This document shows, piece after piece, positions 58,278 through 64,000 of a stretch of 64,000 bases of DNA. Both the position numbers and the translations under genes were made by a program. The DNA comes from Psilocybe cubensis (taxonomy: Eukaryota): assembly GCA_017499595.2 (NCBI GenBank), contig CM038998.1:62001-126000 (forward strand), read 5' to 3'. The stretch's first letter is position 1. The number at the start of each line of letters is the position of its first letter. A model generated the notes under the pieces. That model did not search any database, was not told where the DNA came from, and saw only the letters and a program-made list of their open reading frames with translations.

Positions 58278-59157
58278 CTATTCTGCATCATTGACTCCTG
58301 CGATGTTGGCAAGGGCAGCTCGAACCCGAGCGCTTTCCCTCCTCCCCTCGACACGACGATGTGCCTCCGCCCTATATTTCAGCTTCAACTTCAACACGCT
58401 ATGAACTGGCCAACATTTATCGTAATCCCTGAGAACCGGCCAACGCCTAGTTGCCTACCACGTGTGTCAGCCTTGCTTTTGAGTAGTAAAACAAACTGGT
58501 AATTACCTCTTGACATATTGCTTCAATTTTTTCCTTTTTCTGAGATCTGTAGCTTTTACTCATATCCAGCGACCTCCTTGCTTCTCGGGTGATGTATCCC
58601 TACGGACAAAATCAAGGCATCAGTCAAGTATGGTGAGCCACTATTGATTTACATACCACCATATCTCCTATATCTTCCTCAGACCAGTGGAAGTCGTCCC
58701 TCAGGACTGTCTGGATATTAAACCCACCACTTCCCCGACGGCCAGGTTCTCCCTTTGGCTTCTTATACATTTCGCCTCCTGGGACCGGCGAAGTCACGCG
58801 AGGATGAGAAGGCCCCGCCACTTGGAGGATCATAGCGGGATCAATGGGTTGCCCAGGATCGACCTGCACATGAGTTGCTGGTGTTGCAATTGAAGGCCCG
58901 ATTGGAGGGACAGGTACGGTGTCCTGGCCTGAAGGTCCCTCTGCCTGTATGAGCTCTTCAGGCCCTGGAGCTGCGACGGATGATGGCTGTGGCGCGGCTC
59001 CACGCGGAATGGCGTGTCGCTGTAGCAGCTCTGGAGTCCATTGGATACGAGGGGTAATCTTAGGTAGAGGTTCTTGACTGGGTAAGAGGAATTCGATCCG
59101 GGGAGTGATGAGGGGGAGATGACGAATGTATTCGTGTGAAGGATGCGAGGATGACAT
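58278..59157 (-). CDS. Three-exon hypothetical protein with a Pro-rich N-terminus and a basic helical C-terminal domain
   Basis: Exons 59157-58657, 58599-58507 and 58454-58278 splice in frame: ...KPKGEPGRRGSGGFNIQTVL...HWSEED|GYITREARRSLD...|ATRRWPVLRDYDKCWPVHSVLKLKLKY...*. An alternative ATG is at 59196. Confidence 0.8.
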
Positions 59158-59743
59158 GGTATATGTCGAGGAAAGATTGTGCGTTTTTCTTTTCATTCAC
59201 TATTTGTAGTTTCGTATTCGTCGCTCAATCATCCCCTTTGTTTATTCTATGTAACGTCTCGCTCTTCCGCAGACACTCATCCTCAGTGTGCACGTCAAAT
59301 CTCAGTGCACGTCAAATACGCACCAATTGTTTCGCAAAGTCGCTCTGCTAGTGTCAAAGATTGTTTGATCGATATCTTCTCACCGTAGGGGTAACCATTG
59401 ATCGCTACCTATCATTCTTTCATCAATATCTATTTCAGGGAGGGCTCAAGAAAGCATCATTTGTCTCTACAATGAGTGAAAACCCCAATGACAATATTAT
59501 CAGACATTGAGCCTTAGTTATACTGAAAATGAGCCTTAGTTCCAATATGAATACGGTTTGGCGAAAACGTGACAAAAAGGCGACACGACTCAAAGGGAGA
59601 TGTTATCTTTGACGAGTTATCTGTGACTCGTCAATGGCCAGTGCCAAGGGTGTCACAATGACTTCCGGCGGCGCTGGCGGTAAAGTACTTAAAGAGCAGG
59701 AGTTATCACCAGTCGTAAACGATTCAAACCATCAGCACCCGCC

Positions 59744-61573
59744 ATGGCAAGTGTAAGCTTTGCATCCTGTAGTTGTCGCCCGCTGACATGTTCGATAGGA
59801 GAATTTCGCAATATTCAGAACATATAAGTTGCCATCCATTCTGCCTATCAACACTTTATTGTTCTCAGAGGACGCTAGACTCTTAATATCTGGCGGTGAG
59901 TCTTTTCCTATCGTCAGTGTTAGGTAATCTTTAATAAGAACAATATCATACTTAGGAGATGACGAGACGGTATATGTCTTGGACACAAAAACGGGGGAAT
60001 GCATTCAAACTCTTGAGGATGACAACTGGGGACAAATCACCACAGTTGTCTGGGGACAACAGGAGTTACCCAACAGAGAAAACGGCGTTGTGTTATGCAT
60101 TGGCACGGGGAGAGGGTGTTTGGCGTTGGTTGCGCTAGACTATGATGCCACCGAAGTACTTCTCTTTCTCGTTTCAACTTCCTGTGTCCTTACATTCTGT
60201 ATATCATTCCTTAGCCATTCCCAGTAGGCGCGAACACATCTCCTGTATTTGCGTTCAATGACTCTGTCGAGAAAATGGCTTTCGACAAGCTCAACAATCG
60301 ATTAGCCGTCACAAGTCACTCCGGTGAGATCAAGGTTTTTGCAGTAAACAACAGTAAGTACTCTTGTCAATCGCCCTAGCACTCAAACCACACGAATATG
60401 GTACTCCTAGCTTCCTTGAGGTTATTGTGGGCCGATAATATTGGCAAAGTGATCACCAGCGGCCTATTCTTTTTTGGGGGGTCGAATCAAAGCCTCTTGA
60501 CCATCGGGTTGGAGACATCGGAAATGTGCGTTGATGTTTCTGTTTCCTTGCAATATATTCACGAATTTCTACCACAGGAAGTGCCTCGATGCTTCAAAGA
60601 GAGGTCCGCCATTATGGACGAAACATTTGATTGGTGGGATGTACGTGCTACTTTATGGAAACCCTCCATTATTTTGATAAATTTTTGAATATTTGACAGT
60701 GGAAGCGCGTCTCTGTCCAGCGATGAAACGTTGCTTCTTGTAGACAACCTTGCTACCGGTAACTTCGACGTCTATCAGATCGCCGACAACTCCCCTCTTC
60801 GTTCCCTGCCAATAGGCTCGACCCGTCGATTTTCCAAGCAATGCGCCTTCTTTGAAGGTTCGAAAATAGCAGTTTGCGGCAGTGACACCAATAAAGTTTT
60901 CATTGTGGATGTCGCAAACAACTATGTTGTTCAGACACTGACAACATGTCGAGGTTCGACTTTTCGCTTACCCCCGCATTTCAGTTTATTAATTTGTGGA
61001 CTTAGGTACTTACATGACACAAACGGTCTGTGTTACTCCATCGTCATCGCGCAACGTCTTTGTCGCCGCCGCATGTCGTGGCTATGTATATATCTGGGAA
61101 AAATCAACTCCTCAAGTCCAGGTAAATGTTCGCGCAGATGACCCTCCCCCTTCGAGGTACCGTCGCGTTGGATCCGCTATTTTGCCTTACCTGGGATTTG
61201 CTGTCGCTGGTACTGTCGGCCATTGGTTACCACACGCCTGGAAGGTGAGCAGCTTACAATCCTTTTGGCATTTGACAAACTAATGATATTCAAGTTGGGC
61301 CAAGACATAATCATGAAGACTGCTGATTATCTCATCCAGAATGGCGCAGATAGGACGATGGAACTTCCAAGAGAAGCTGTTGACAAAATCTTCGAGATGG
61401 CGGCAGCGGCCTCGAGGGCTTTGGATATGTCGTCGGCACTGGTGTCGTCGAGGACTCTCGACATGGCTGCTATTGCTACAACAACATACACGGCTGCTAC
61501 TGCGACTGCTACGATGACATCCCCTTCTGCTACCTCTCTTTTTGACATGGCAGCAGCAGCGGCTGGCCATTAG
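59744..61573 (+). CDS. WD40-repeat protein with a C-terminal hydrophobic segment and Ala/Thr-rich tail, multi-exon
   Basis: gccATGG at 59744. WD-like blades INTLLFSEDARLLISGGDDETVYVLD, VEKMAFD...LAVTSHSGEIKVF, CAFFEGSKIAVCGSDTNKVFIVD and GYVYIWE. Canonical introns. Confidence 0.8.
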
Positions 61574-61721
61574 AATCTGCATCTGCGTATCCTTCTAATT
61601 TGAAACGTGCCCTAGATTTCTTTTGTACATTTATGATATCGGATAATGACATTTTGCTGAGTAACCTGACTACATGCATCGAAGCTATGATCTACACAGT
61701 TTTCCATTATGTTCTCAGTGG

Positions 61722-64000
61722 TCAAAGAATTTGCCTATCTACAGGTCGGAGTCGGGATAAAGATACACATACAGCGACGTCTCTATCTTCCCATGGGATG
61801 ATACATTTGGCAAAGTGTCCTTCTACAGCTGAAAAAGGAAGGACTTCGAGGATATCTTGGACGTCGGTTCCCCATAGTTTGGCACGAAAATGAACCCACG
61901 GGATATAAGGATCGTATTTGACCCCCGCTTCTTGGTATCGATTAACCACAAACCATATATCATCCCTAAGTACTTTTTTAGGAAACTTGAGGACATTCTT
62001 GATACGGTAGGGCACATTTGACGCATTGAGGACCCCGCTATTGCCTTCATGTACGTCCCAAGATGTATAAGATATCCGACCAACGCGATAACGGTTTGTA
62101 TACATTGCCCGCGCGGGCACGGTTGTCACACCATACCGTAAAAATGCCCGAGTAATGTCCATCTTTAACACCACCGCACGTCGATCATCGTATGGGATGG
62201 CTTCTTCTTGAAGATCTTCTTCGCTTTCCTCGTCGTCTGTCTCAGTGTCATCGTCGGCCTCAGCATTTGCGACATCGATTGTCTCTGCTTCTCCTGCGAG
62301 TATGTACCGTCCTTGGGGCATCACCAACTTGCGAAAGATCGGCCAACAGTCCCGAATAGCTTGTGGACATCCTGGTCTTTGAAAAATTGCCATAAGTTTG
62401 GACCTTCTGTGCCAGGAAGTCGCAATTGTTTCCTCGTACTCGCCTACTATAGATCAGTAACCATGAAAGAGCAGGCAACAGGTAAAGCAAATTACCTTGC
62501 TTGTAATTTGTGGGAATTCTTTGCAGCATCCCAATCATACGTTCGAAGGGAAACGTCCACCAACCATGAACAGGCCCATATTCGATGATAAACTCCCTCA
62601 TATGCATAGCCATATGATGATTAGGAACACACTGGTAGCTTGGAAACAGCCTTGAAAGCTCGGAACGGTATTGTACCATCAAATTCAGGTATTCATTGGC
62701 CATAGCTGGTGATGCGACCCGGGAAGTGATGACAGATATGGCCTCAAAAAGAAGCATCGTGAGGCGCAAAAGTTCTCGACGTGTTTGGGCAGGTTTCGAA
62801 TGGTCAATTCCCGACCATATTCGGATGAGGGTAACTGGGATGTAAAGTGCTGCCGCAATGCGCCATTGGTCTGATTTGAGTTTTCCACTCTTTGCGGACA
62901 TCGACCAGGGTAACGACGAGACCCATGACGGTTTTACCATAGCTGCAATGTCTCGTCGGATGGATTTCATGTCTTCTGCTGTAAGTATCTTTCCCTGCTT
63001 GCCATCCACTTCTGAAGTAGCCTGGCTTGACTGTGACTGGCCGAAATTTTTAGTTGTTAGAAGAATTGAAAAATTTAACAACGTACGGATCTTTCTTTAC
63101 GCTATTCACCGCGTATTAAACTATCAGATTGATGTTGAGGTAACGACGATGCAGACGTACCCATTGAACAAGCATTTGGGCCAGATCTTCTTTCTTGACT
63201 CGCATCATACCATTTAACGTGTCCCGGCCACGATTGGTGATGGTAGAGGGTATACACCCCAGATGTTTACCAACAAAAACAAGGGCTTCTGCTGCGGTCT
63301 TCTTTGCCAACTCGTTTGCTACGTCGGCATCTTCGATTGGAAGAGGCTCTGCCAACCATTTTCTGATGATGCGTATTCCTTTTTGACCAGACTCTGAGGT
63401 TGGCAAAGGATTACTTTCATTGCCCTCAATGTTTTGTAATATAAAGCTATCGCTCGATATAGGTGTTTGTTGTTTCTTCTTCTGCTTGGGTAAATCAGAA
63501 CCGTCACCGAGAATGTGCTGAAAATGCTCTTTGATGAGTCCAAGAAAAAGGTTATGCATCGGGTCTACAACAAGGCTCATGGTTGGCCGATAATAGGGCA
63601 ATCGATGAAATTCTGACGTGCGCAATCCGGATTTGTCGAAAAGGCTTGCAGCGGCCTTTTCGGAGGGGGCTGCCTGGTATTTCCAGGCACCATCTCGACA
63701 TTCGTCATCGGTGCGCCATGTCCATTTTTCATAATCGAAGTTGTTGAATGTATGCACAGTTTTACTACACCAGCACATCGAACAGAAATATTCCTGATTG
63801 TATGAAGAAAATCCACCAGCCTTCCGTGCTGCAGGAAGATCGGCGATGATTGCAAGAAGAGCACAAAGAATAATGCGCCCCATAGCGTAAAGAGCGGTGC
63901 GCGTAAAAAAAACACCCACCCAAAACAGCAGGAAAGTGTCAACAATAGGGCGGAAGTATGGGTTTGCTGCTTCTAGACTGGGTTCATTGGGACCCGGAAT
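61722..64000 (-). CDS. CACTA/En-Spm (Tnp2-like) DDE transposase, 5' part outside window
   Basis: IPGPNEPS...PIVD, IIADLPAARKAGG...FCSMCWC, VDPMHNLFLGLIKEH, GKLKSDQWR and PNHHMAMH...YGPVHGWWTFPFERMIG are hallmark motifs of fungal CACTA-type transposases. Introns near 63122-63160 and 62447-62496. Confidence 0.9.

Follow-up and report, generated by a model that had tools for sequence, protein, structure and literature searches.

A divergently transcribed gene pair beside a Tnp2-type transposase in a candidate CACTA/EnSpm transposon of Psilocybe cubensis

Three genes at the end of the window

We analysed positions 58278-64000 of a 64,000-nucleotide stretch of Psilocybe cubensis DNA (contig CM038998.1, forward-strand positions 62,001 to 126,000; this whole stretch is called the window below), together with further features from the rest of the 64-kb window. 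The analysed part holds three genes of a putative CACTA/EnSpm-type transposon, which code for a small protein (S), a WD40 protein (W) and a transposase (T). Exact protein mapping and exon alignment placed all three where the first-pass annotation, made from the sequence alone, had seen a small-protein gene, a WD40 gene and a CACTA transposase gene.

58278-59157, minus strand: S gene, 256 amino acids (aa) in 3 exons, by exact mapping of the annotated protein P0001
59158-59633, no strand: divergent spacer between S and W, 476 bp, coordinates from exact protein mapping
59634-61573, plus strand: W gene, 494-504 aa in 9 exons, with a WD40 beta-propeller, a hydrophobic segment and an Ala/Thr/Ser-rich tail
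61722-64000, minus strand: T gene, last three exons of a Tnp2/Transposase_21 (EnSpm/CACTA) transposase whose 5' part lies past the window end

The genes had been described as intact, which was borne out for S and W and could be judged in T for approximately the C-terminal half to two-thirds of the protein only. The divergent arrangement of S and W was also recovered, with a spacer of 476 bp from the annotated W start at 59634 rather than approximately 590 bp, the earlier figure having arisen because a later ATG at 59745 was taken as the start of W. The distance from the W stop to the T stop, given before as about 150 bp, was 148 bp. The spacer is presumed to be a shared bidirectional promoter; it contains a single TGTTTGA copy, at 59362, which is no excess over chance.

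The exons of S lie at 59157-58657, 58599-58507 and 58454-58281, with the stop codon at 58278-58280, and a 190-aa open reading frame (ORF) at 58624-59196 (minus strand) showed 100% identity to P0001, deposited as 'hypothetical protein JR316_0000018 [Psilocybe cubensis]'. An exhaustive HMMER search of 1.84 billion cluster representatives returned 345 relatives of S at E ≤ 1e-3 and 90 at E ≤ 1e-10. Species names were available for 17 of the 18 family members looked up and all 17 are Agaricomycetes; order was confirmed for just two species labels, P. cubensis (Agaricales) and Sanghuangporus (Hymenochaetales). Four features recur across the family: two short ITPR-type motifs near the N-terminus, a middle region that is proline-rich and disordered, a GEPGR..GG motif that hardly varies, and a helical domain at the C-terminus in which LD, Q, WP and LK positions are conserved; the invariant motifs specific to S are GEPGR..GG and WP..D.LK. 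A second P. cubensis paralogue of this family, P0140 (JR316_0012998, 260 aa, outside the window), is diverged and its GEPGR motif is degenerate.

No Pfam family scored above its cut-off for P0001 or 50 of its relatives; HTH_NOL4_2nd matched 2 of the 50 relatives below cut-off (best E 8e-4) and the other matches were scattered singletons. The S profile found one chance-level row among PDB sequences (E 0.37), while a protein atlas returned only unnamed Basidiomycota clusters, with NOL4 and integrase SAM-like neighbours at TM 0.2-0.34 that serve as leads only. The structure prediction that the first-pass annotation had proposed for the small protein gave, in two independent AlphaFold2 runs with different alignments, a confident domain at residues ~131-250 that is helical throughout (pLDDT 93-98), residues 1-125 being mostly of low confidence; residues 126-256 are basic, with an isoelectric point of 9.7.

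Comparison of this model with known structures by VIA-align gave a best Z of 6.1, within the range that the tool flags as a common helical arrangement, and placed five BEN-domain entries, four of them DNA complexes, among 50 rows (7yul, Z 5.4; 4x0g, Z 5.1; 5jno, Z 5.0; 7yuk, Z 4.5; 8yzs, Z 4.2; 62-81 aligned residues). The other rows included homeodomain, trihelix, Zeste, capicua C1 and P-element transposase structures, and the DNA-binding helical rows spanned Z 4.1-5.4. The predicted C-terminal domain of S thus bears a weak resemblance to BEN and other DNA-binding folds. Like the BEN proteins BEND6, BEND3, BANP, Bsg25A/Insensitive and NACC1, S has a compact, basic, all-helical domain of ~90-100 residues; it differs from them in having no Pfam BEN or PDB-chain sequence match, in Z values within the helical noise range and in its own GEPGR..GG and WP..D.LK motifs.

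The annotated W models P0267, P0004 and P0269 (494-504 aa) map to nine exons at 59634-61570, followed by a stop at 61571-61573. P0004 scored above cut-off for PF00400 WD40 (30.9 bits, cut-off 27) and for PF12894 ANAPC4_WD40 (30.3 bits, cut-off 22.9), with many propeller-family Pfam matches across residues 55-383, and by these profiles W is a WD40 repeat beta-propeller protein. A membrane anchor was considered for the hydrophobic segment behind the propeller, which is kept in P0005 and P0006, and was rejected, its hydropathy being borderline or below that of a propeller strand.

The T exons (64000-63116, 63045-62488 and 62447-61722), none of which contains a stop, align with Tnp2 proteins of 1125-1364 aa from approximately residue 440-590 to the end, that is, with their C-terminal 55-65%. 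We found 111 relatives of T, nearly all with PF02992, and T was 41-51% identical to PF02992 proteins (best 51%). The exon pieces gave weak matches to Transposase_21, Plavaka and DUF4218; the Transposase_21 score of 15.4 bits (cut-off 28.6) is low because the window holds only the end of this domain, and full-length relatives of T reached 35-58 bits against the same cut-off. T therefore has the Tnp2/Transposase_21 (PF02992) transposase characteristic of CACTA/EnSpm elements.

Boundary, copies and interior of the repeated unit

Read depth was determined on 44001-64000 with two raw Illumina DNA runs carrying the same species label (X13 and X14), both mate orientations being summed. The left end of the element was located by loose read ends and a jump in depth, next to a field of subterminal repeats.

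45413-45438, plus strand: left terminus of the element, starting 5'-CACTG, with loose read ends and a depth jump
45372-45813, no strand: subterminal repeat field, 22 TGTTTGA/TCAAACA motifs in both orientations

Reads with loose ends immediately ahead of 45412/45413 numbered 125+286 in X13 and 105+257 in X14, and the consensus agreement of these ends was 0.39-0.45. An agreement as low as ~0.4 means that many different flanks adjoin this position, as is typical where a transposon ends. The depth at 45413 climbed from about 22-29 to about 340, and the 26-nt terminal stretch that begins there occurs once in the window. TGTTTGA/TCAAACA was counted 44 times in the whole window where 15.2 were expected, a count reached in 0 of 100 shuffles, and 22 of these motifs lie within 442 bp, an array of the kind found below the ends of CACTA/EnSpm elements. 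No TGTTTGA clusters were found in 54 related metagenome loci (described below), and the motif is specific to the element family of the window.

The depth along the region, relative to the flank, was as follows:

44001-45334 (flank): 22-29 in X13 and 24-30 in X14; relative depth 1
45335-54672: about 240-370 in X13 and about 160-320 in X14; 9-12 times the flank
54673-56006: 430-590 in X13 and about 370-480 in X14; 17-20 times the flank (X13)
56007-64000: 142-191 (mean ~163) in X13 and 115-163 (mean ~142) in X14; 5-6 times the flank

The depth was flat over 56007-64000, the stretch that covers S, W and T, and no loose end lay between 56.4 and 64 kb among the best-supported loose-end sites. P0001 is one identical sequence found under at least 4 NCBI accessions on 5 contigs (UniRef n=6). 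The S and W accessions are consecutive at four loci (9476359/60, 9477908/09, 9483313/14 and 9484010/11) and a fifth W accession exists. The copies of W are at least 99% identical, with differences that consist of gene-model choices and two substitutions. The copy structure in P. cubensis is thus deduced from accession numbers and read depth; the depth of 5-12 times the flank, the heterogeneous terminal flanks and the presence of S on 5 contigs amount to the multiple dispersed copies typical of CACTA/EnSpm elements.

These results showed that the S-W cassette belongs to the repeated unit in P. cubensis. The proposal of the first-pass annotation that S and W are carried by the element was accordingly upheld, with ~5-6 near-identical copies that are contiguous with the transposase and the CACTG end.

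The part of the element between the subterminal field and S contains the following features:

45814-58277, no strand: element interior, with host-gene fragments and without genes conserved across species (Pfam scan, tblastx)
47.6-48.8 kb: Exo_endo_phos fragment (Pfam)
48.6-49.6 kb: Mito_carr fragment (Pfam)
50.6-51.3 kb: Peroxin-3 fragment (Pfam)
54.4-54.7 kb: importin-beta fragment (Pfam)
54917-57927: inverted-repeat structure, arms 54917-55460 and 57378-57927 of ~540 bp each, 78-85% complementarity, 1.9 kb apart

Comparison of the interior (45.8-58.3 kb) with related metagenome elements by tblastx gave no similarity. The Mito_carr piece (48642-49561, minus strand, and 49732-50019) is matched by spliced contigs of run X15, which show 2-7 differences per exon and CT..AC intron-like gaps; they look like transcripts of the parent gene, so part of an expressed host gene was recently copied into the element. 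X15, presumed to be an RNA run, gave no contig on 56-64 kb, which is neutral as to expression there.

Depth peaked, at 17-20 times the flank, in the 1.3-kb segment 54768-56044, which has loose ends of 0.99 agreement on both sides and also occurs in another repeat family or subfamily, with about 10 additional copies. Agreement of 0.99 at 54768, 55711 and 56044 indicates one alternative sequence at each site, unlike the many flanks of the left end. The 30-nt loose-end strings at 54768 and 56044 had no match in the window at up to 3 mismatches. An element end at 56044 was considered and discarded, the string behind it realigning, by eye, to 56048-56069 at 20 of 22 letters, which points to a diverged subfamily. 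The inverted-repeat structure at 54917-57927, which has a run of 22 C at 56143-56164 between its arms just left of S, may be a nested foldback or an insert resembling a miniature inverted-repeat transposable element.

The S-W pair in other mobile elements

JGI metagenome contigs were scanned with an alignment of 12 closer S sequences, which gave 54 loci in which genes were mapped by tblastn. A relative of W was found in 24 of the 54 loci (17 of the 25 with at least 1.5 kb upstream of S), and in 23 of the 24 it lay head-to-head with S, that is, directly upstream on the opposite strand, L038 being the exception. The match edges of S and W were 208-1210 bp apart in the 23 head-to-head loci. Among the S loci of at least 6 kb, 8 of 22 had a Tnp2 relative. 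Collapsing near-identical loci reduced the 54 to 34 lineages, of which 19 had W and 9 had T, with a further lineage showing T weakly.

In L041, L054 and L007, T, W and S lie between long inverted repeats that are 8.4-19 kb apart; L041 and L007 are about equal in size to the element of the window. One Logan contig of 7044 bp is given as the source of both the WD40 relative P0005 and the Tnp2 relative P0031, no more than a hint that the two sit together on one contig.

The dN/dS comparison (nonsynonymous over synonymous substitution rates) that had been proposed for both proteins was made on conserved exons. The S exon with the GEPGR motif was recovered in 52 of 55 sequences and gave a median dN/dS of 0.29 over 81 pairs limited to dS 0.05-1.5, 99% of them below 0.5 and none reaching 1. 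The W exon homologous to 60701-60955 was stop-free in 21 of 21 homologues, with a median dN/dS of 0.11 over 8 pairs. Both S and W are under purifying selection. The pairwise identities of S and W co-varied (Mantel r=0.80, p=0.0006) in the 7 elements with all three genes, these and the other Mantel values being calculated on short, intron-broken fragments.

These comparisons showed that S-W is a unit of long standing, maintained by selection in many mobile elements of Agaricomycetes, and that Tnp2 is a frequent but not a constant neighbour of it. Single-copy, syntenic host genes with no tie to CACTA transposases, which the first-pass annotation had set out as the opposite outcome, are not what was found: the pair is multi-copy and Tnp2 occurs on the same contig in 9 of the 34 S lineages.

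Several other conserved sequences accompany S in these loci. ORF Y, of ~150 aa, is present at L007:15147-15605 (plus strand) and L041:12381-12824 (plus strand), with relatives in L031, L033, L039, L052, L044, L009 and L035; it lies 2.5-5 kb downstream of S in most loci and, in L035, beyond T on the opposite strand. A conserved block directly 3' of S was seen in several lineages (e.g. L037:3800-4299), and L007:16792-20184 is a 1130-aa ORF that is 65% identical to L045:6722-8119. ORF Y, the block 3' of S and the 1130-aa ORF had no Pfam match, and none of the three was found in the window.

Interpretation of the locus

We consider it probable that a single copy of a CACTA/EnSpm-type transposon, recently amplified and at least 18.6 kb long, runs from 45413 past 64000, with T and the S-W cassette as its coding core, and we rate S-W as a previously undescribed accessory cassette of a multi-gene CACTA transposon. 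The mechanism that we propose is tentative and, as a whole, less likely than not. S would be the DNA-recognising adaptor of the element and the functional counterpart of maize TnpA, its basic helical C-terminal domain, behind the GEPGR..GG loop, binding sequences of the element, for instance its subterminal TGTTTGA motifs. Contact with the propeller of W would be made by the two short ITPR-type motifs near the N-terminus of S or by the long disordered linker of S, and W would be a platform connecting this complex either with the transposase or with the chromatin or ubiquitin machinery of the host. The outcome would be synapsis of the ends, or an element shielded from silencing, and a shared divergent promoter would keep the levels of S and W in step.

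Several observations weigh against this interpretation. CACTA/EnSpm elements are bounded by short terminal inverted repeats, 5'-CACTA/CACTG ... TAGTG/CAGTG-3', and flanked by a target-site duplication of 3 bp (2-5 bp across CMC elements); at the locus itself, the left CACTG end is the only one within the window, the right end being past 64000 and its inverted partner and the target-site duplication outside, and the depth of 9-12 times the flank left of 54.7 kb against 5-6 times over S, W and T means that the core is not in all copies of the left part at 95% identity. Concerning S, a Foldseek search of its model against PDB returned nothing at E ≤ 0.001, its structural Z values (best 6.1) are those of a common helical arrangement, and no Pfam or PDB sequence match backs DNA binding. 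The 'accessory' role of S and W in transposition or anti-silencing is one that we only infer.

The metagenome loci add further points of this kind. A Tnp2 relative was found in 12 of the 54 S loci (11 strong), a frequency that stands without a background rate for Tnp2 near random fungal genes. The place of T varies, the arrangements being T-..W- S+ (six loci), W- S+ T-, S+ T+ and T+ S+; the window, when flipped so that S is forward, reads T+ W- S+ and its closest relative, L035, reads W- S+ T-. Co-divergence of S with T and of W with T was moderate in the 7 elements (r about 0.54, p about 0.02). Some S lineages are without W (L026/L028, L013, L017 and L019), and four long loci (L017, L019, L031 and L037) have neither T nor a further gene, ORF X. 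This conserved ORF of ~800 aa adjoins S or W-S in 4 of the 34 lineages, all four without Tnp2:

L038:5929-8319, plus strand: ORF X
L001:667-3285, minus strand: ORF X
L013:693-2318, minus strand: ORF X
L018:2786-4333, minus strand: ORF X

ORF X, which the window lacks, had no match in Pfam, PDB sequences or the atlas; it may code for a transposase not yet recognised as such, or be one more gene of the element.

The same observations favour, among the alternatives, a portable passenger module that stands outside the transposition machinery, moves between transposon lineages and aids its carrier indirectly or propagates itself. The pair differs from locus to locus in where it lies and how it points relative to T (in L035, compared with the window, it is flipped with respect to T), ORF X takes the place of Tnp2 beside the pair in 4 of 34 lineages, and the co-divergence of S with W (r=0.80) is far tighter than that of either with T. 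A precedent exists in the TET/JBP genes, which are described on 11 lineages of fungal DNA transposons, with transfers between them (PMC12730594). However, the second transposon lineage is only putative, ORF X having no match in Pfam, PDB or the atlas; the basic helical domain and weak BEN-like matches of the S model would suit a nucleic-acid-binding adaptor; and no enzymatic domain that counters silencing was found in S or W by Pfam. We therefore regard such a passenger as rather unlikely, though deserving of serious attention.

Capture of S and W from the host as ordinary cargo, idle and intact only by the youth of the element, is in our view very improbable. The element does hold Mito_carr, Peroxin-3, importin-beta and Exo_endo_phos fragments, and the X15 spliced contigs fit transcripts of a Mito_carr parent gene elsewhere. 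These fragments are, however, common to no related element, whereas S-W occurs in 19 of 34 lineages at 25-63% protein identity in the same head-to-head layout, and dN/dS between lineages is well below 1. No single-copy parent of S was seen either, the other P. cubensis relative, P0140, being a diverged paralogue.

That S-W is a host gene pair of a subtelomeric, transposon-rich region, segmentally duplicated and adjacent to a transposase by chance, is scarcely credible: the CCCTAAA repeats at 20739-21050, the tag JR316_0000018 and a 13.2-kb perfect duplication in the window speak for it, but the copies are on 3-5 different contigs, heterogeneous flanks adjoin the CACTG terminus of the repeated unit, and Tnp2 and S relatives share a contig in unrelated metagenome samples.

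Maize En/Spm and other plant CACTAs encode a TnpD transposase and a TnpA protein that binds subterminal repeats. The P. cubensis element has in common with the plant CACTAs a Tnp2-type transposase, a 5'-CACT(A/G) end, a large size, extra protein(s) and short subterminal motifs in both orientations. S lacks any Transposase_24 or other TnpA-type Pfam match (P0001 and 50 members, E ≤ 0.05), which leaves it outside the TnpA family; by analogy, it may work like TnpA despite this difference in sequence. S and W are separate, divergently transcribed genes, whereas the plant CACTA proteins are alternative splice products of one transcript, and the set of the P. cubensis element includes a WD40 protein, unlike that of plant CACTAs.

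Accessory genes have been described for fungal elements: EnSpm, Plavaka, Kyakuja, Zisupton, KDZ and other fungal DNA transposons carry TET/JBP dioxygenase genes (PMC12730594). Those elements and that of P. cubensis are alike in being Agaricomycete and CMC-type, in carrying a conserved non-transposase gene that presumably aids the element and in the modular link of this gene to the transposase. They differ in the accessory genes themselves, a WD40 gene and an unnamed helical-protein gene in P. cubensis against a TET/JBP dioxygenase gene in the known elements. A Pfam scan (E ≤ 0.001) of 105 ORFs from 21000-58300, each at least 90 aa long, detected no TET/JBP domain, nor was one detected in the pieces at 58.3-64 kb. 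'WD40' has 0 occurrences in the text of PMC12730594 and in the part of its supplement that the search covered. A survey of fungal cut-and-paste transposons names, in its accessible part, only transposase domains for CMC elements (PMC5751038). Our literature search found no WD40 or S-like gene described for fungal CACTAs, Repbase entries and bioRxiv supplements being outside this search. The first-pass annotation knew of no such accessory genes in fungal CACTAs; its novelty claim stands for this particular pair and not for the principle, because TET/JBP accessory genes are already known in fungal EnSpm/Plavaka elements (PMC12730594).

Pack-CACTA, or transduplicating, plant CACTAs carry fragments of host genes (PMC6379663), and the interior of the P. 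cubensis element (45.8-58.3 kb) likewise holds pieces of several unrelated host genes. Unlike the non-autonomous Pack-type elements, the P. cubensis copy is probably autonomous, since it retains the transposase and S-W.

To our knowledge, mushroom CACTA/EnSpm elements are abundant, and their gene content beyond the transposase is essentially undescribed apart from TET/JBP passengers. The present finding adds a large protein family with no name (345 cluster representatives) and a WD40 protein dedicated to it; both travel with CACTA/EnSpm elements under selection, here in an element that appears recently active and in a fungus that can be grown in the laboratory. It makes testable the questions of what replaces TnpA in non-plant CACTAs and of whether the WD40 protein is a scaffold to host chromatin or degradation pathways. 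It also bears on annotation, S and W now being deposited as host 'hypothetical proteins' that inflate gene counts. A stronger version, in which S-W is a self-contained, portable helper module of Agaricomycete DNA transposons, made of a new DNA-binding family and its WD40 partner, swapped between unrelated lineages (Tnp2 and X-based elements) and acting on chromatin or protein turnover in the host so as to license transposition or block silencing, we hold to be unlikely; if true, the TET/JBP passenger genes would have in this module a second counterpart that works by a different mechanism.

The remainder of the window contains other features. Telomere-like CCCTAAA repeats form two blocks 221 bp apart at 20634-21050 (20739-21050 was also cited); these blocks and the locus tag JR316_0000018 point to a subtelomeric position in which tracts of telomere repeat lie internally. 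Positions 1-~7800 and 13201-~21000 are a direct duplication with a spacing of 13,200-13,201 bp, in which the sampled 300-nt blocks were 100% identical; this reflects either an artefact of the assembly or tandem duplication in the very recent past. At 28891-37094, 4-5 diverged tandem paralogues of one unnamed gene, whose ORFs had no Pfam match, lie in repeat families spaced 1.7-2.9 kb. Two host genes were recognised, both on the plus strand: that at 24706-25932 codes for an ankyrin-repeat protein with a 204-bp tandem repeat array, and that at 38569-42058 for an ISWI-type chromatin remodeller with SNF2, Helicase_C and SLIDE domains.

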